DNA from: Methanoregula sp.
Lineage (GTDB): Archaea; Halobacteriota; Methanomicrobia; Methanomicrobiales; Methanospirillaceae
Direction of reading: 5' to 3'
Length of the DNA stretch: 64,000 bases
Assembly (NCBI GenBank): GCA_030694985.1
Contig: JAUYTV010000017.1
Coordinates: 3,747 to 67,746, forward strand
Positions 15,702-25,182 of this stretch are shown here, in pieces. Position 1 is the first letter of the stretch. Every line of letters begins with the position of its first letter. A program made the translations under genes and the position numbers. Under the pieces are notes generated by a model. It saw nothing but the letters and a program-made list of their open reading frames with translations. It was not told the DNA's origin and did no database searches.

Positions 15702-17237
15702 TTAACCGGTCATTATTGACGGAGTAATATTGATATCCAGAATACGGCCCTGCTCCCGTGTGTATTTCGGCCAGGTCACATTCATCCCTCCATTCGGGTT
15801 TCCGGTCTTTGCAAACCGGGTCCAGAGATCTACGATATTGGCAGCCACTGATGGATCTGCTGGAACCGGCACGCCGAATAACAGGAGGGTTTCGCTGCCA
15901 TGGAACGCCCCGTCGGACTGATTCGGCAGGATATAGCTGTAGCGGTACACATATGTGTCCGGGCTGATGTCTCCCATCGAGCCTGCCGCAAACTTTACCG
16001 AGTCACTAAAATCATAGTCCGTCATGATTTGTGCCAGCCGGAGCTGGACTTCGGCAGTTGAGTTGGCAGGATATTTTGCTAATACTGCATCCGCATCCTT
16101 GCCGAAATAGCCCCGGATGAATGTTGTGTACTCCGGAACGGTCATGTTGGCATTCGCAGAGAGCGTTGTCCCGTCATTGGCATTGCTACCGATCATGAGG
16201 GGGACCGGGTTTTCCTTGTGGCTACCGAAAAGAGAATCAACGGAATCGGGGAGCAACCATCCGTCAATTGTTGGCTCGAAATGCAGGGTATGAGTAAGCT
16301 CCCATGAGGATGATGGCCAGGGAGTGGCATTGATCAATTGTTCGGTACTTAACGTTCTCATCCGGGCAATCGCACCCGGCCCTGAATATCCGAGGCTTTT
16401 TGCGTATTCAATGCCAAACTGTTCAGCGTCAGATTTTGAATGAACATTATCGATAGTGGGACCGTTCGCCCAAAAAGGACCGCTTTCGACAATTGCCTGC
16501 TGATAAAGTCCTTTGCTCTGGGGGCTGACCAGATGAATAAGAACACTCTCTCCTCCAGCTGATTGCCCGAAAATGGTCACCCGGGACGGGTCGCCGCCGA
16601 ATGCTCCGATGTTTCGCTGGACCCACTTGAGGGCTGCCTGCTGGTCCATCAGCCCATAATTGCCCGAGCTGTTATTTAGGGACTCAGCGTCCAGCTCCGG
16701 ATGGGCAAGGAACCCGAGAGCGCCAAGCCGATAATTGGTTGTGACAACGATAACACCTTTCTTTGCAAGGGTAGTCCCGTTATAGAGTGCAATTGTGTCA
16801 AGCGGAGCTACCGTTCCGAATGCCCCGCCATAGAAAAAGACCATAACCGGTAGTTTTTCATCCGCACTTTTTGCCGGGGTCCATACATTGAGGTACAGGC
16901 AATCCTCGCTCATGTTAGGAACATAGGATCTTGTGACCGGCTGGGGAGGTTCCGCTGAAAACACTTTTGCTTCCCTAACACCGTCCCAGGGTTTGACCGG
17001 CGCGGGAGGTTTCCAGCGCAGGTCACCGGTTGGGGGAGCTGCGAACGGTATCCCGTGGTAGACTCGCAGGCTTCCCTGTTGAATTCCAGAAACCGCGCCG
17101 GCATCGGTCTTCACAACACCGGATATATTTGCTACACCGGGCTCTGATCCATTATGGGTACACCCTGCCAAAAAAGAAAATCCTATAAGAATCAGGCAGC
17201 TTATCAGAGCACAACTTGTCAGTTTATTTGCTAGCAT
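15702..17237 (-). CDS. exported type-B carboxylesterase
   Basis: Signal ending FLAGC; GIPFAAPP.GDLRW, SEDCLYLNVW, GQSAGG nucleophile elbow, FHGSE. Confidence 0.93.
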   Translation of the reverse strand: MLANKLTSCALISCLILIGFSFLAGCTHNGSEPGVANISGVVKTDAGAVSGIQQGSLRVYHGIPFAAPPTGDLRWKPPAPVKPWDGVREAKVFSAEPPQPVTRSYVPNMSEDCLYLNVWTPAKSADEKLPVMVFFYGGAFGTVAPLDTIALYNGTTLAKKGVIVVTTNYRLGALGFLAHPELDAESLNNSSGNYGLMDQQAALKWVQRNIGAFGGDPSRVTIFGQSAGGESVLIHLVSPQSKGLYQQAIVESGPFWANGPTIDNVHSKSDAEQFGIEYAKSLGYSGPGAIARMRTLSTEQLINATPWPSSSWELTHTLHFEPTIDGWLLPDSVDSLFGSHKENPVPLMIGSNANDGTTLSANANMTVPEYTTFIRGYFGKDADAVLAKYPANSTAEVQLRLAQIMTDYDFSDSVKFAAGSMGDISPDTYVYRYSYILPNQSDGAFHGSETLLLFGVPVPADPSVAANIVDLWTRFAKTGNPNGGMNVTWPKYTREQGRILDINITPSIMTG

Positions 17238-17748
17238 ACGATTGCATCCCCATTTTTTTAATGGAAAAACCGGGTGATGGCATGAGTGAAGCAGATCTTT
17301 AGCGGATCCCGCAACTACTTTTCATTAATAAATACCCGGCATTTTTTTTAAAATATTACGCTTCGACACATTAACGCTTTGTATCTGCCTGTGTCAGATA
17401 ATTTATTTTCAAACAGGGGAAAAGGCCTTGCCACTTTTTATATCTCACAATGATACCAGACGAAAGTTTCCATTTTTATGTTCCACCTTGGCAATTTTTT
17501 CTGAGTTGAGTCCTTTCATACGTTCTTCTGAAACCGTGACGCTGGTCTACACCGACCCACGGTTGCACAATCGCGCTATTACCGGAAATGAGTTGTAATT
17601 AAACCGGTCTGTATCGGGTTCACATTACAAGGGCAGTCCTTAACCGGTGAAACATAGATTAATGAGCTCAAAGATTCTTATTCTCCATAATTATCCGGGG
17701 TACGCACGAAAAACGATTGCAGCAGAATCCATGAACTGGATGAAAAAC

Positions 17749-18426
17749 ATGAAGTTTGCACGATTCTCTCTTTACACCGTGGCAGTTATTATTATTTTTG
17801 TGCTCTTCAGCGGGTGTCTTGACAGTCCGGCTATCAGCTCTTCCGGGAGCAGCGGAACGGGTTCTGGTTCATGCAAATCCGGTTATGCCAAATATACTAC
17901 AAGCCAGGGACATTGCTGTCCGACCGGGTATCCGTATTACTATGACGGGAAATGCCACTCGTGTTCGGAAGGGTATAATAAATACAGCACGAGCGCCGGT
18001 TACTGCTGCCCGGTAGGGTACACACATTATTACAACGGTAAATGTCACCAGTGTTCTTCAGGATATTACAAATACGACACAAGCGCTGGTTACTGCTGTC
18101 TGTCAGGGTACCCGTATTACTATGGCGGTAAATGCCATTCGCAGTCCTCGGGTTCTTCTTCAGGTTCTAACACCGTGATTGTATACAATGTTCCGGTGGA
18201 TGACCGTACCGGCTGCCCCGCCCAGAAGGACCTGCAATGTTCCGGATGGATAGCCGCAGGCAGCTGCCAGATACAGTCATGCACCTGCTACTATAGCGGG
18301 CTTCATGGCGATACTACCGCTGCATATTATCACACATCGGATGGTGCGTATTTCCGGTGCAGTGGCGCCGGCCAGACCCTGAGTTGCATTGCCGCAGCAC
18401 AGGCAGCTGCACAGCATTGCCTGTAA
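17749..18426 (+). CDS. Cys/Tyr/Gly-rich exported lipoprotein-like protein with three 30-aa repeats
   Basis: Signal MKFARFSLY..VLFSGC; Ser/Gly linker; three Cys-rich repeats; Cys-rich C-terminal domain. Confidence 0.8.
   Translation: MKFARFSLYTVAVIIIFVLFSGCLDSPAISSSGSSGTGSGSCKSGYAKYTTSQGHCCPTGYPYYYDGKCHSCSEGYNKYSTSAGYCCPVGYTHYYNGKCHQCSSGYYKYDTSAGYCCLSGYPYYYGGKCHSQSSGSSSGSNTVIVYNVPVDDRTGCPAQKDLQCSGWIAAGSCQIQSCTCYYSGLHGDTTAAYYHTSDGAYFRCSGAGQTLSCIAAAQAAAQHCL
17872..18141 (+). repeat. three tandem 90-bp intragenic repeats
   Basis: Units at 17872, 17962 and 18052 encode CxxGYxKYxTSxGxCCxxGYxxYYxGKCHx. Confidence 0.92.
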
Positions 18427-18660
18427 TCTTAGACACAAAAAATGCTCAAGGTTACATTCTTCATCCCATTTTCATGTCGCTTTTTTTTAGCAGTTTTTTT
18501 ATGCGAAATAAACGAGGTGTCATTCATCCATACACATGTCATATCTCTAAACCTGAAATGCGGTGAAATTTAACATATTAAGGCGTCATTAAAAAAAACG
18601 GACGAAAATTTCCATCCGCATAAGATCATTTATAAAATTTAACATCTTACTCAATGGATA

Positions 18661-19749
18661 ATGAAAAAATGTCCCGATTGCGGCAGAGAAATATCCTTAT
18701 CAGATAGTGAATCTACCTCTTTTAAAAAAGTGGAAAAAACCCCTTTTACAATCCGGCAGTTTTTATGGGACAATTTTCGTTTTTTTACAATGATAGGGAT
18801 TACCGGAACCATGATCTCCCTGATACCCAATATGGGGACCCGGATTCTTGGGGCCACATGGATTACCGATACAGAGACTTTCCTTCCCTTGTTCCTTTCA
18901 ATAATCATTTTTTTTGGAGCAATTTTTTTAACTCTCTGTTTTTTAATTATATTCAGCCTGATAATCCAGGCAAGGGATTCTGAGAAGATCTGGAAAAAAA
19001 TTACTCTTCATAATAAAACTCTCATCATCTGGTATGAAGGTGATTTCCAGCGCACCATACTGCTTTTTTGTTTAGTGCCGATGTGGGTAGGCTTATTGCT
19101 GTTTTTTATCATGTTAATGCCATTGATTCCGAATAAATATTCATGGCTGTTTGCAACAATTATCGGGCTTACCTGTATTCCGCTTTTTATCTATTCATGT
19201 TTAGGCTGGAATATGGGGAAAAAAGTTACCGGACTTATTCCGGGAATGAGAAAATTTCCTCTTATAAGTGTAGTTGTATTCACGATTCTGGTAGTGGGTT
19301 TTTTCCTCATTTTACCCTTTGCAATCCCCCAGTTTTTTAATAATACGGATACTTTTTCCGGAGATATTAAAATCCGACCGGATCATCTGTATTTTTCCCC
19401 ACATCTTTCCTCAGTAAAAGGATTACGGTTAGAGATCACGAATTTGTCAGGCCGTGAATTACAGGCCAGCCGTCACATATGGTCGGCAAATTTTGGATAT
19501 TTCATCAGGGTTATTCCATCTACTTCTGAAGTAATAATACTGGGAAATCCCGTGGATAACCGGAATTCAAGGGATATTTACTGGACTTATTCACAAAATA
19601 ATCCAGAACAAGTGAAAAAACCAGTAAAAATTAATCTGCATCTCTATCCATTACAGGGAAATGAAGAGATTTCCAATTCTTCATTATACCTGACATGGTA
19701 CGATAACGATATTGTGTATGCCAACACCTCGTGTGAAACATATCAATAA
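18661..19749 (+). CDS. hypothetical polytopic membrane protein with N-terminal CxxC knuckle and soluble C-terminal domain
   Basis: 362-aa ORF; MKKCPDCG; about five TM segments; AT-rich. Confidence 0.75.
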   Translation: MKKCPDCGREISLSDSESTSFKKVEKTPFTIRQFLWDNFRFFTMIGITGTMISLIPNMGTRILGATWITDTETFLPLFLSIIIFFGAIFLTLCFLIIFSLIIQARDSEKIWKKITLHNKTLIIWYEGDFQRTILLFCLVPMWVGLLLFFIMLMPLIPNKYSWLFATIIGLTCIPLFIYSCLGWNMGKKVTGLIPGMRKFPLISVVVFTILVVGFFLILPFAIPQFFNNTDTFSGDIKIRPDHLYFSPHLSSVKGLRLEITNLSGRELQASRHIWSANFGYFIRVIPSTSEVIILGNPVDNRNSRDIYWTYSQNNPEQVKKPVKINLHLYPLQGNEEISNSSLYLTWYDNDIVYANTSCETYQ

Positions 19750-21523: not shown

Positions 21524-21806
21524 AGGTAAAAAACGTGAGCAGGGTTCATTTTTTTAAGCCATGTGCCAGGAGACGAACTGATACTGGCCTGTAAGGAATA
21601 TGGGGTTACTGTAGATGCAGAGTCAAAAAAGCACCTTTTCCAGCGAGGCTTTTAAGAAGCACACCCGTTACTGATTATACCCGATTCAGGAGATTTTATC
21701 TATCAGCAGCATCACAATCAAAAAAAATGACGAGCCCGGTAAGACAGCACGGTTTGATATGATGGTGCCAAAAGGTATGTGGCGTATGAACGGCAAGGAT
21801 GCATAA
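21524..21806 (+). pseudogene. decayed HATPase tail of a histidine kinase
   Basis: Manual translation across frameshifts and stops: GDELILACKEYGVTVDAESKKHLFQRGF* ... EILSISSITIKKNDEPGKTARFDMMVPKGMWRMNGKDA*; its TAA overlaps the next ATG. Confidence 0.8.
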
Positions 21807-24052
21807 TGACTGCGACAATTCGCATCCTCTATGTTGATGACGAACCTTCCCTTCTCGATATTGGCAAGCTGTTCCTTGAGAAAGGAGGAGTGCTTACTGT
21901 CGATACGCTCACATCTGCAATAGAGGCACTGGAGCAGTTGAAAACAAAGCGGTATGATGCGATCCTTTCCGATTACCAGATGCCGGAGATGGATGGGATC
22001 ACGTTCCTTAAACAACTCAAAGCATTAGGTGATAAAACTCCGTTTATCATTTTTACCGGAAGGGGCAGGGAAGAGGTAGTCATTGAAGCGCTGAACAGCG
22101 GTGCGGACTTCTATATCCAGAAGGGCGGCGATCCAAAGTCGCAGTTTGCCGAACTCTCGCACAAGATTAAAACAGCAGTCAGCCGCCAAAAGACAGAAAA
22201 ACTGGCAAAGGATACGGATAGACGGCTCAATGATATTATTAATTTCCTCCCGGATGCGACCTTTGCAATAGATACTAAAGGAACCGTGATTGCATGGAAC
22301 AAAGCAATTGAGGAGATGACCGGCGTTCCTGCCCGCGAGATGCTCGGCAAGGGAAATTATGAATACGCCATACCCTTTTATGGTGAGCGTCGTCCTATCC
22401 TGATAAATCTCGTATCCATCCCTGACGAAGAGCTCACACAAGGTAAATATGCAGTCATCAAAAAAGAGGGAGATATCCTGATCGCCGAGACCGAACTTCC
22501 CCGTCCTTTGGGAAGATATTCAGTCCTGCTTGGAAAGGCATCCATTCTCTATAATGATGAAGGGCAGGTTATTGGCGCTATTGAATCCATTAGAGATATC
22601 ACTGACATGAAAATGGCAGAGAAGGCACTCGCTGAGAGCAGGCGTCGACTTGAGGCAATGGCCACCAACATTTTCGGGGTTGTCTACCGATTCTGCGCAA
22701 ACCCTGATGGAACATACGGGTTTGATTATATAGGAGAGCGCAGCCGGCAGATCCTTGGTCTGGAGAATGACCCGGTTTCATTTTTTCAACGGGTTTATGA
22801 GGGTATCGTTCCAGAAGAACGACAACGATTCATCAGATCGGTTCAGCACGCCATCAGCACAAAAACTCTCTGGGAATTTAGCAGCTGGTATGTGAAACCC
22901 TCAGGAAAAAAGATCTGGATCAGTGCTGTATCCAGCCCGGCAATTGAAAATGAGCGGCTCGTTTTTGACGGTGTTATTTTTGACAATACCGAGTGTAAAA
23001 AAGCAGAAGAGTTTATGCAGATGAGCGAATTGAAATATCGTTTGCTTATCGAATCTTCAAGCGATGCGATTTTTTGCGTAGATGAGAATGGAGCGTACCA
23101 ATTTACCAATCTCATATTTGCATCAACCTTTGCTAAAACGCCTGAGTTTTTTATTGGAAAAACCTTCTGGGACATTTACCCAAAAGAGCATGCCGATCTC
23201 CGTCAATTGGCAAACCTCAAAGTGTTTGAAACAGGAGAGGTCCAGACCCTTGAAGTCGAAGTTCCCTTACCTCATACAACATTATATTTTCTCGCTAAAG
23301 CAAATCCGATAAAAGATGAAACAGGCAAAGTAATCTTAAATCTTACCCATGCAACAGACATCACTGACAGAAAGCGGGTGGAACAAGCAATCCGGCAGGC
23401 AAACCAAAAACTCCTCTTACTCTTAAGTATCACCCGGCACGACATCAACAACCAGCTTACGGTGCTGCTGGGATATCAGGAGTTAGTAGCGATAAAGCAG
23501 GTGGATCACCATCTCATTGATTATTGCCAGAAGGTCATAACCGCTGCACAGCGGATTTATGCCATGATCCAGTTCACCAAAGAATACGAGAGTCTTGGAA
23601 TATCAGCACCTGCATGGTATGATACCAGCACACTCATTCAGACTGCGGCAAAGCAAGCTTCGCTGGGAAAAGTCATGGTAAAAAACGATATTCCTTCAGG
23701 ATATGAAATGTTTGCTGACCCGCTAATAATCAAAGTCTGCTACAACCTGATGGAAAATGCTGTGCAATATGGCAAGAAGATCACAACTATCCGGTTCTCT
23801 GTTCTGGAACGTAACGATGAACATCTCATTATATGCGAAGATGATGGGGTGGGGGTTCTTGCAGAAGAAAAAGAAAAGATCTTCGAGCGGGGTTTTGGGA
23901 AGAACACCGGACTTGGTTTAGCCTTGTCCCGCGAGATACTCTCAATCACGGGCATCACCATAAAAGAGACCGGTGAGCCGGGCATAGGAGCCCGGTTTGA
24001 GCTGACCGTGCCTAATGGTATGTGGCGGATTGGGGGAAAGAAAGAAAAATGA
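21806..24052 (+). CDS. hybrid sensor histidine kinase (REC-PAS-PAS-PAS-HisKA-HATPase)
   Basis: ILYVDDE, LSDYQMP; three PAS/PAC segments; SITRHDINNQL; NLMENA, EDDGVG, GFGKNTGLGL. Confidence 0.93.
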   Translation: MTATIRILYVDDEPSLLDIGKLFLEKGGVLTVDTLTSAIEALEQLKTKRYDAILSDYQMPEMDGITFLKQLKALGDKTPFIIFTGRGREEVVIEALNSGADFYIQKGGDPKSQFAELSHKIKTAVSRQKTEKLAKDTDRRLNDIINFLPDATFAIDTKGTVIAWNKAIEEMTGVPAREMLGKGNYEYAIPFYGERRPILINLVSIPDEELTQGKYAVIKKEGDILIAETELPRPLGRYSVLLGKASILYNDEGQVIGAIESIRDITDMKMAEKALAESRRRLEAMATNIFGVVYRFCANPDGTYGFDYIGERSRQILGLENDPVSFFQRVYEGIVPEERQRFIRSVQHAISTKTLWEFSSWYVKPSGKKIWISAVSSPAIENERLVFDGVIFDNTECKKAEEFMQMSELKYRLLIESSSDAIFCVDENGAYQFTNLIFASTFAKTPEFFIGKTFWDIYPKEHADLRQLANLKVFETGEVQTLEVEVPLPHTTLYFLAKANPIKDETGKVILNLTHATDITDRKRVEQAIRQANQKLLLLLSITRHDINNQLTVLLGYQELVAIKQVDHHLIDYCQKVITAAQRIYAMIQFTKEYESLGISAPAWYDTSTLIQTAAKQASLGKVMVKNDIPSGYEMFADPLIIKVCYNLMENAVQYGKKITTIRFSVLERNDEHLIICEDDGVGVLAEEKEKIFERGFGKNTGLGLALSREILSITGITIKETGEPGIGARFELTVPNGMWRIGGKKEK

Positions 24053-25182
24053 CAGGTACAATCAGGGTTCTCTATGTGGATGACGAACCTTCCCTGCTTG
24101 ATATCGGCAAGCTGTTCCTTGAGATGGACGGAACTTTTGCAGTCGATACGTTCACTTCTGTTTCTGAAGCACTCACGCAGCTGAAGATGGAACGATATGA
24201 TGCCATCCTGTCAGATTACCAGATGCCGGAGATGGATGGCATCACGTTTCTTAAACAGATAAGAGCCTCTCAAAATAGAACCCCGTTTATCATCTTCACT
24301 GGCAGAGGGCGTGAAGATGTGGTGATTGAGGCGCTCAACAACGGGGCTGATTTTTACATTCAGAAAGGCGGTGAGCCCAAGAGCCAGTATGCAGAGCTTT
24401 CGAATAAGATTCGTTACGCTGTTTCAAAGAAGCATTCTGAAGAAGCGTTAGGGGAAAGTGAGTTGCTTGAAAAGGAGATGGAGTACCATGAAAAGGAACT
24501 CATGAAATATTACAACCAAACGTTAGATGATGCAAACAAGAAACTTACATTACTCTCCGGAATCACGCGACACGACATCATCAGCCAGCTGACCGCATTG
24601 CAATTATACCTTGAAATTCTGGAAAATAAGCTGCCAGACTCATCTTACCATGAGTATTTTAAAAAGATTGGGATTGCTACAGACCGGATCTATTCTATTG
24701 TTCGGTTCACCCAGGAATACGAAACGATTGGAGTTAATACTCCCGTATGGGTGGATGTCAGTGCAATTGTTGATGCTGCAAAAAAAGAGGGTGTTTCTGC
24801 ACACCTCCAACTCGTAAACGATCTTCCTGCCAACTTCGAAGTTTTCTCTGATGCCCTGATTGCCAATGTCTGTTACAACCTCATAGACAATGCGGTGCGA
24901 TATGGGGGGAAGATCACAATGATCCGGTTCTCTGTTGAAGACGCCGGCGATTACCATCGTATCGTGTGCGAAGATGATGGAAACGGTGTGGTTGCTGAAG
25001 AAAAGGAGAAGATTTTTACCCGGGGTTTTGGCAAGAACACCGGACTTGGGTTAGCACTTTCCCGTGAAATCCTCTTAATCACGGGTATCACGATCAAAGA
25101 GAACGGTGAGCCGGGCAAAGGAGCCCGGTTTGATATCGTGGTACCGGATGGTGCGTGGCGTATAGGGGGGAGGGAAGACTGA
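24049..25182 (+). CDS. hybrid histidine kinase (REC-HisKA-HATPase, no sensor domain)
   Basis: VLYVDDE; GITRHDIISQL; NLIDNA, EDDGNG, GFGKNTGLGL; ATGA overlap with the upstream kinase. Confidence 0.92.
   Translation: MTGTIRVLYVDDEPSLLDIGKLFLEMDGTFAVDTFTSVSEALTQLKMERYDAILSDYQMPEMDGITFLKQIRASQNRTPFIIFTGRGREDVVIEALNNGADFYIQKGGEPKSQYAELSNKIRYAVSKKHSEEALGESELLEKEMEYHEKELMKYYNQTLDDANKKLTLLSGITRHDIISQLTALQLYLEILENKLPDSSYHEYFKKIGIATDRIYSIVRFTQEYETIGVNTPVWVDVSAIVDAAKKEGVSAHLQLVNDLPANFEVFSDALIANVCYNLIDNAVRYGGKITMIRFSVEDAGDYHRIVCEDDGNGVVAEEKEKIFTRGFGKNTGLGLALSREILLITGITIKENGEPGKGARFDIVVPDGAWRIGGRED

Follow-up and report, generated by a model that had tools for sequence, protein, structure and literature searches.

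In a 64,000-nucleotide stretch of a Methanoregula contig (JAUYTV010000017.1; the whole stretch is called the window below), the plus-strand coding sequence 17749-18426 specifies a protein of 225 amino acids (aa) plus stop, which we refer to as P0001. It consists of a lipobox signal peptide, three tandem 30-residue repeats rich in cysteine and tyrosine, and a C-terminal domain with eight cysteines (C-domain). We found that the gene is real and under purifying selection, that the protein is probably exported and is predicted to be lipid-anchored, and that both of its modules, the 30-aa double-hairpin repeat and the 76-aa 8-Cys domain, appear from database searches and structural models to be undescribed families. 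The reading we favour, to which we would give a probability of about 45%, is that the repeats form a rigid hairpin stalk displaying the C-domain as a conserved recognition head on the cell surface, and that the protein acts without the neighbouring hydrolases.

Conservation and predicted export of P0001

Searching a protein database with P0001 returned 31 relatives at E ≤ 0.01, about 24 of which were full-length orthologues with 55-90% identity. All 21 of the 21 cysteines were invariant in the 15 orthologues that were aligned, the lipobox Cys23 included. Codon comparison across six orthologous loci gave ratios of nonsynonymous to synonymous substitution rates (dN/dS) of 0.09-0.23 at dS 0.3-2. 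When the protein was divided by region, the C-domain was the most constrained part (0.04-0.12) and the repeats had values of 0.09-0.23, while the linkers and the signal peptide were mostly higher (0.06-0.6), with one signal-peptide pair reaching 2.95 at very low dS. This low dN/dS and the invariant cysteines, together with a Shine-Dalgarno-like block upstream and oligo-T tracts downstream of the coding sequence, establish that the gene is real.

The N-terminus of P0001 is MKFARFSLYTVAVIIIFVLFSGC, a signal peptide with lipobox that begins with MKFAR, continues with SLYTVAVIIIFVLF and ends with S-G-C23. Among the 15 orthologues C23 was invariant and S21 and G22 were conserved in at least 90%, and position -3, which is F in P0001, was L, V or F. 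P0001 falls within the archaeal lipobox definition (positive n-region, hydrophobic core, [L/V/I]-[A/S/T/V/I]-[G/A/S]-C). This motif definition has been published together with a description of archaeal lipobox proteins and the AliA/AliB machinery, and the same study predicted lipobox signal peptides to be common in Euryarchaeota, where AliA (arCOG02177) is broadly conserved (PMC12462473). In the relatives of P0001 the modules always stood after a signal peptide or after a cytoplasmic zinc ribbon plus a transmembrane (TM) helix, or else before a C-terminal TM anchor. The initial annotation of this DNA had called the protein a lipoprotein, and predicted export and lipid anchoring were borne out at the sequence level by the conserved SGC lipobox.

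Repeat array and C-terminal domain

Tandem Repeats Finder analysis of the gene showed a period of 90 with 2.5 copies, 72% matches, 0% indels and a score of 252, and a repeat search found three copies spaced by exactly 90 and 90 nucleotides (nt) with 62-75% nucleotide identity. The three 30-aa repeats quoted in the initial annotation were letter-perfect and together cover nucleotides 17872-18141; each of them has four cysteines, and a further Cys-rich domain follows, both as had been claimed. The repeats also contain 6-7 tyrosines each. A weaker 45-nt sub-period (family D3) lies inside the 90-nt array because each 30-aa unit is made of two similar 15-aa halves. The first half (hairpin A) has the pattern C-x2-G-Y-x2-Y-x-T-S-x-G-x-C and the second (hairpin B) the pattern C-P-x-G-Y-P-Y-Y-Y-x-G-x-C-H-x, and between successive hairpins CC and C-H-x-C junctions alternate. 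A "THYY" signature was specific to repeat 2, and the repeats were conserved position by position across the orthologues. Given this per-position conservation and the purifying selection, the repeat pattern is far beyond chance. The mature protein is 13% Tyr and 10% Cys, and within the repeats these shares rise to 22% and 13%. The eight cysteines of the 76-aa C-domain are C156, 164, 173, 178, 180, 204, 213 and 224. No catalytic signature was found in P0001.

AlphaFold2 modelling on the orthologue alignment gave a mean predicted local distance difference test score (pLDDT) of 68.5, in which the repeats scored 85-91 and the linkers were disordered. Each repeat was modelled as four short strands, which in repeat 1 were residues 46-49, 56-58, 63-65 and 68-70. 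The C-domain was also modelled alone with AlphaFold2 on a more diverse alignment (A4), which gave a pLDDT of 88.4 and a predicted template modelling score (pTM) of 0.73, and the resulting model was a sheet of beta-hairpins with a C-terminal helix packed against it.

The initial annotation had recognised no family in P0001 and had named a match of the repeat to a characterised Pfam family as the result that would overturn its view. Our searches agreed with it: Pfam and NCBIfam gave 0 matches to P0001 at E ≤ 10, repeat included, and gave no family for either module when the paralogue (described below) and distant relatives were used. Against PDB sequences, a phmmer search with P0001 produced only a chance MORN match (E 0.59), and a profile built from 75 distinct repeats (A2) had 0 matches at E ≤ 10. 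Structural comparison by Foldseek was also negative: against PDB, no match to the full model was better than E 0.7. For the C-domain, the best E against PDB was 0.19, with only a partial NTF2-like curved-sheet overlap at a template modelling score below 0.4, and the best E against the BFVD viral models was 0.35, with no credible neighbour. The 8-Cys hevein/CBM18 domain (PF00187; 30-43 aa) gave no Pfam match at E ≤ 10, and a P0001 repeat has only four cysteines. A literature search on Cys-rich surface proteins of Methanoregula found nothing relevant.

Modularity and distribution

The number of repeats in the relatives was 2, 3, 2+2, 4, or up to about 6-10. The closest relative, in genome G076 (P0008), has two repeats and is without repeat 2, an R2/R3 hybrid repeat is present in P0005 and P0006, and in G290 a two-repeat block has been duplicated. 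Such differences by whole repeats, together with the hybrids and the duplicated block, bear the marks of unequal recombination inside the 90-bp array.

The repeats were found in several settings: after lipobox signals, after a cytoplasmic zinc ribbon plus one TM helix (P0025, P0027, P0028, P0030-32), before a C-terminal TM anchor (the paralogue and P0038), and after PKD and papain-like protease domains in distant bacterial-looking proteins (P0057, P0066). At least three unrelated Cys-rich end domains follow them, namely the C-domain of P0001, a domain of the type "YYASCSEC...LYSYRG...C" (P0033, P0040, P0043), and a third type in P0030-32. Hairpin B also occurs alone, with exactly two cysteines, in P0063 (QCPEGYPYYYEGRCH) and as consecutive C...C-x2-C...C units in P0071, and the first unit of an array may open with a single Cys rather than CC (P0046).

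The C-domain was similarly mobile. By itself it makes up lipoproteins of 107-118 aa (P0034, P0037, P0045), it stands after a zinc ribbon, a TM helix and a different Cys-rich segment in P0029, P0048 and P0052, and a divergent subfamily is found in small lipobox proteins of bacterial look (P0076-80). One C-domain relative, P0060, is fused to an exported glutaredoxin-fold domain (PF00462). The arrangement of zinc ribbon, TM helix, different Cys-rich segment and C-domain (56% identity) was also present in a 298-aa protein from a metagenome-assembled genome (MAG) of Candidatus Micrarchaeota (CAZOKY010000061.1; L040 1066-1962, plus strand), which may reflect gene exchange between co-habiting archaea. 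This Micrarchaeota gene adjoins an open reading frame (ORF) of 308 aa that is Fic-like by eye.

When HMMER was run exhaustively on 1.84 billion representative proteins, only 49 matches came out at E ≤ 0.001. In a sample of the same order, matches were present in 21/301 genomes; by lineage they covered 14/48 species of Methanoregula, 3/6 of its sister genus and 3/9 of one genus of another family, and four other families (160 genomes) had no match. The phylum sample of 401 genomes showed the same two lineages only. The full architecture of repeats plus C-domain was found in about seven of the genomes searched, and the named records were all MAGs of Methanoregula, Methanoregulaceae or Methanomicrobiales, several of them from peat studies. 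The gene is a patchy accessory gene, and its small family is nearly restricted to Methanoregula and its near relatives.

The genome that carries P0001 has one paralogue (L002 1348-2196, minus strand; G000 contig C30:8416-9036), a protein of 282 aa. Its signal peptide is followed by six Cys/Tyr repeats, in which two subtypes alternate, then by a linker rich in Thr and Pro, and the chain closes with a TM helix whose last residues are RKNK. NCBIfam found no PGF-CTERM-type C-terminal sorting signal in it. The paralogue sits between two proteins with similar C-terminal TM-plus-basic anchors.

Cysteine chemistry

Methanoregula is a strict anaerobe. In the present genome, which is 96% complete, no gene matched the Pfam models for VKOR, DsbA or DsbB in searches that did match control genomes. 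The genome does encode a reductant transporter of the DsbD/CcdA type (L024 1405-2070, minus strand), and Thioredoxin_4 had only a sub-threshold match. Because DsbA, DsbB and VKOR were not found and a CcdA-type exporter is present, we can only infer the chemistry of the cysteines. The initial annotation had pictured a disulfide-stapled module, and the architecture of P0001, judged by its sequence, fits disulfide-closed hairpins. A passage in PMC12453122, citing Dutton et al. 2008, reports that the exported proteins of obligate anaerobes are kept free of Cys.

A crude lipobox screen of the genome gave 55 candidates, of which P0001 was the most Cys-rich. Counted on the mature chain, 24 candidates had no Cys, 12 had one, nine had two, three had three and two had four, and there was one candidate each with 6, 8, 12, 18 and 20. 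Among candidates with at least two Cys, even counts outnumbered odd ones by 16 to 3, and with single-Cys candidates included the counts were 16 and 15, so the even counts are only a hint of Cys pairing. Contigs C11, C26 and C49 encode other Cys-rich lipobox proteins, whose Cys counts are even (18, 12 and 8). In the C49 protein two units of about 60 aa with four Cys each stand in tandem (NPASVNCGK...YGMC...C.EWALFR.EGC), which may resemble DUF333.

Proposed stalk-and-head model and its alternatives

In the reading we favour, Cys23 would be lipid-modified after export and would hold the protein on the outer side of the cytoplasmic membrane. Each hairpin would be closed by its own Cys pair, Ca-Cb and Cc-Cd; we infer this connectivity from the isolated two-Cys hairpin of P0063, the strings of P0071 and the single-Cys start of P0046. 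Six closed hairpins with zero-residue (CC) and two-residue (C-H-x-C) connectors would make a stiff Tyr-coated rod, much as hairpin modules with one disulfide do in Cys-rich domains of the TNFR, furin-like and EGFR types. Such a rod could be a spacer of adjustable length, with a copy number that shifts by unequal recombination, and its Tyr-rich face may perhaps be a multivalent contact surface that adds avidity. The rod would hold out the C-domain, and this recognition head would bind an envelope or extracellular ligand, which could be a glycan, an S-layer component or a partner cell.

The variable copy number, the hybrid repeats, the three unrelated end domains and the protease appendage argue for the stalk role. 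The C-domain is taken as the recognition element because it has the lowest dN/dS, and its confident independent fold in the model and the free-standing small lipoproteins (P0034, P0037, P0045) also point to a head. A binding or adhesive role would be the most reasonable guess for P0001 as a whole. Because the protein has a lipid anchor and about 200 residues, the ligand may well be found inside the envelope or pseudo-periplasm (glycans, S-layer underside) and not at a distance from the cell. Several points weigh against this picture. The chain is short, and a lipid-anchored protein of 200 residues may not pass the S-layer, which weakens the reading as an external adhesin. Foldseek found no TNFR, furin-like or granulin fold similarity. 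Structural disulfides are made less certain by the presence of a CcdA-type exporter in a genome in which DsbA, DsbB and VKOR were not found, and also by the general avoidance of Cys in exported proteins of obligate anaerobes, as put in that passage of PMC12453122.

The last two points would suit a protein whose cysteines are metal-thiolate ligands, with Zn, Fe or Ni ions bound in each repeat (four Cys) and in the C-domain (eight Cys). It would be a metal-stabilised scaffold, or would buffer or scavenge metal outside the cytoplasm for a metal-hungry methanogen. In favour of it, the host is a strict anaerobe with CcdA and with no DsbA, DsbB or VKOR found, structural Cys tend to be kept out of the exported proteins of anaerobes according to the passage cited above (PMC12453122), His often flanks Cys (GHCC, KCH-x-C), and the C-H-x-C junctions have a zinc-knuckle likeness. 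C-H-x-C occurs at the repeat junctions only. However, the flanking His is variable, being present in 57/116 and 75/116 repeats at two positions and otherwise replaced by Y, Q, N or W; together with the isolated two-Cys hairpins, this limits the comparison with zinc ribbons and metallothioneins. Two Cys cannot make a Cys4 site, as would be needed for the single (P0063) and strung (P0071) hairpins, and a scheme based on the junctions leaves the first and last Cys of the array without partners. In addition, the five most Cys-rich predicted lipoproteins all have even counts (6, 8, 12, 18 and 20), as pairing predicts, and the glutaredoxin-fold fusion P0060 points to thiol-disulfide chemistry. On this evidence we regard metal binding as unlikely. 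The cysteines (and tyrosines) could also form intermolecular bonds in a cross-linking envelope strut, as proposed for chlamydial Cys-rich envelope proteins. The extreme composition of the mature chain (Cys 10%, Tyr 13%) and the predicted membrane anchor are what one would expect of a strut, but the Cys counts are even and closed within each module (4 per repeat, 2 per isolated hairpin, 8 per C-domain) with no obvious free Cys, the habitat is reducing, and the distribution is patchy (14/48 Methanoregula species with any repeat protein, about seven genomes with the full-length protein), unlike that of a core envelope component. We consider such a strut very unlikely.

Two other readings concern the surroundings of the gene. 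The initial annotation had proposed P0001 as the substrate-binding or immunity partner of a run of hydrolases from which it is divergently transcribed. The geometry was described correctly: the carboxylesterase gene (15702-17237, minus strand) is divergent from the P0001 gene across a 511-bp gap, a beta-lactamase-fold gene, an M23 peptidase gene and a second beta-lactamase-fold gene lie beyond it, and the closest relative G076 has the same arrangement. Among the seven orthologous loci, however, the adjacency was seen only in G076. The orthologue in G245 adjoins grpE-dnaK-dnaJ, which lies between the M23 gene and the orthologue; PAS kinases adjoin the orthologue in PtaU1.Bin051 (G235); G214 and G293 are without a hydrolase within about 10 kb; and both modules occur in many hydrolase-free architectures and contexts. 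The functional link to the hydrolase island was rejected because synteny is not kept, and as far as the compared loci indicate, the adjacency is a feature of the variable locus and not of the gene. A role for P0001 as a substrate-binding, inhibitor or immunity partner of the adjacent exported hydrolases is thus highly improbable, so that the earlier interpretation holds for an exported Cys/Tyr-rich module followed by a second Cys-rich domain, in a new family, and fails for the hydrolase partnership. A defensin-like or toxin-like Cys-rich effector released against competitors is just as improbable. Its small Cys-rich modules, patchy accessory gene and variable locus would be in keeping with such an effector, but the lipobox and the TM-anchored variants indicate retention on the surface of the producer, no processing site, immunity gene, or secretion or maturation genes were found near the P0001 gene, and selection is strongly purifying, not diversifying.

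A more far-reaching reading may also be put forward, although we think it quite unlikely. The family could represent an undescribed way to build stable exported proteins in strict anaerobes, either by Dsb/VKOR-independent disulfides or by a new metal-thiolate fold, and the C-domain could perhaps be a cell-cell recognition head in a host-episymbiont or syntrophic relation. A Dsb/VKOR-independent disulfide route is hinted at by the even-Cys lipoproteins and by the glutaredoxin fusion of a C-domain relative. The cell-cell recognition head is conceivable because the C-domain is common to Methanoregula and a DPANN archaeon (Micrarchaeota), in which it is carried on a membrane-anchored stalk.

Gene features and genomic neighbourhood

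The start codon at 17749, which was also the choice of the initial annotation, was the best one, because a conserved Shine-Dalgarno-like block lies 5 nt upstream and two orthologues are without a usable upstream start (L019 has an in-frame TAA at the place of the upstream ATG, and L021 has no ATG there). Starts at GTG 17647 (259 aa, merely the longest possible frame) and at ATG 17731 were rejected. In the upstream alignment the seven orthologues had AT-rich blocks in common, and the two conserved blocks listed in Table 1 are candidate archaeal promoter elements, TATA-like in character. Oligo-T is a known termination signal of archaeal RNA polymerase, and the two tracts behind the gene are likely its terminator, which would make the gene monocistronic.

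Table 1 Features of the P0001 gene and protein in the window
Feature	Position	Strand	Basis or remarks
Coding sequence of P0001	17749-18426	+	ORF and translation; whole-gene dN/dS 0.09-0.23 against six orthologues
Signal peptide ending in lipobox F-S-G-C	17749-17817	+	MKFAR n-region, hydrophobic core; Cys23 is the predicted lipid-attachment residue
Linker 1, Ser/Gly-rich, flexible, aa 24-41	17818-17871	+	Read from sequence; pLDDT <50; length varies among orthologues
Repeat 1, aa 42-71: CKSGYAKYTTSQGHC + CPTGYPYYYDGKCHS, two predicted Cys-bounded beta-hairpins	17872-17961	+	
Repeat 2, aa 72-101, lineage-conserved "THYY" variant	17962-18051	+	
Repeat 3, aa 102-131	18052-18141	+	
Linker 2, Ser-rich, aa 132-149	18142-18195	+	pLDDT 40-48; dN/dS above that of the domains
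C-terminal 8-Cys domain (putative head), aa 150-225	18196-18423	+	Modelled beta-hairpin sheet and C-terminal AAAQAAAQHC helix
Conserved upstream blocks CATAGATTAATG (17653-17664) and ATAATTAT (17687-17694)	17653-17694	+	Alignment of 200 nt upstream, seven orthologues
Shine-Dalgarno-like GGATGA	17738-17743	+	5 nt before ATG 17749; GG(G/A)TGA block kept in orthologues
Two oligo-T tracts: T8 (18481-18488) and T7 (18494-18500)	18481-18500	+	55-75 nt past the stop codon; read from sequence

On the upstream side, segment 12800-17237, which separates the M23 peptidase gene from that of P0001, was variable: it holds beta-lactamase-fold and carboxylesterase genes here and in G076, and grpE-dnaK-dnaJ takes that place in G245 (L004/L018). 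Downstream, the plus-strand gene 18661-19749 encodes a protein of 362 aa to which Pfam and NCBIfam gave no match. It begins with a zinc-ribbon-like region (CPDCG motif), crosses the membrane in several TM helices and has an extracytoplasmic domain at its C-terminal end. Its counterpart has 92% identity in G076; in G214 the identity is 74%, and about 7 kb separate the gene from the P0001 orthologue. Further on, two overlapping and mutually similar PAS/histidine-kinase ORFs of 757 aa and 386 aa (21779-25182, plus strand) match a tandem of related kinase genes in G076, which looks like a local duplication of sensor kinases.

Significance

Methanoregula species are dominant methane producers in peatlands, and to our knowledge their cell-surface proteins are almost wholly uncharacterised. 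The analysis contributes two apparently new extracellular modules, each a candidate entry for a domain-family database: the 30-aa double-hairpin Cys/Tyr repeat and the 76-aa 8-Cys domain. These recur with a lipobox anchor, with a zinc ribbon plus TM anchor, with a C-terminal TM anchor and as a protease appendage. What is new is the two domain families; the general kind, Cys-rich hairpin-repeat surface proteins, is already known. The 20 invariant cysteines of an exported protein in a strict anaerobe in which DsbA/DsbB/VKOR were not found are odd and pose a puzzle, and settling their state either way would give insight into how archaeal anaerobes fold their surface proteins. Beyond the Cys question, P0001 is at present a lineage-restricted hypothetical protein.

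Comparison with known cysteine-rich systems

The repeats can be compared with the hairpin modules of TNFR, furin-like and EGFR-type Cys-rich domains (e.g. TNFR_c6, Furin-like, GCC2_GCC3 and TNFR_ELAPOR1_6th). Both consist of short Cys-bounded beta-hairpins with a C-x2-C junction between units, both have a "C-P-x-G-Y ... G-x-C" flavour, and both would build rod-like arrays outside the cell, variable in copy number, by which binding sites are presented or formed. P0001 also had a marginal match (E 4.7e-4) to a ciliate-type protein with such repeats, P0073, whose own repeats fall just under the PF23091 cut-off. However, the strict 30-aa period, the alternating CC and C-x2-C junctions, a Tyr content of 20-25% and the archaeal host belong to the P0001 repeats and not to the TNFR or furin-like families. 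Pfam gave no match at E ≤ 10 to TNFR, furin-like or EGF-type hidden Markov models for P0001, its paralogue and its close relatives. TNFR, EGFR and furin-like chains were absent from the Foldseek top 50 for the full model against PDB, a method that is weak on small disulfide-rich repeats. Membership in the TNFR, furin-like or EGF-type families is not supported by these comparisons.

Granulin/epithelin modules are likewise small and disulfide-dominated, with a stack of hairpins and CC doublets in which neighbouring Cys go to different partners, as we would expect in the P0001 repeats. Human granulin C appeared at rank 45 in the Foldseek search of the full model against PDB, at a non-significant E of 3.2. 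The 12-Cys granulin pattern is C-x5-6-C-x5-CC-x8-CC-x6-CC-x5-CC-x4-C-x5-6-C, whereas the P0001 repeats are spaced as C-x13-CC-x11-C-x2, and there was no granulin Pfam match. The variant-specific surface proteins and high-cysteine membrane proteins of Giardia resemble P0001 as dense-Cys, CxxC-containing surface proteins of an oxygen-avoiding organism, and whether their Cys are in disulfides or bind metal has been debated. The Giardia proteins differ in being eukaryotic and hundreds of residues long, with a TM anchor, a conserved cytoplasmic tail and GGCY plus CxxC motifs, and no sequence relationship between them and P0001 was detected. As to its anchor, P0001 resembles the archaeal lipobox lipoproteins that depend on AliA/AliB (PMC12462473): in both, the signal peptide closes with [x][S][G]C, the Cys being invariant. 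Membership of that class follows from the anchor alone and is mute on the passenger domains, and it is the passenger domains of P0001 that appear to be new.

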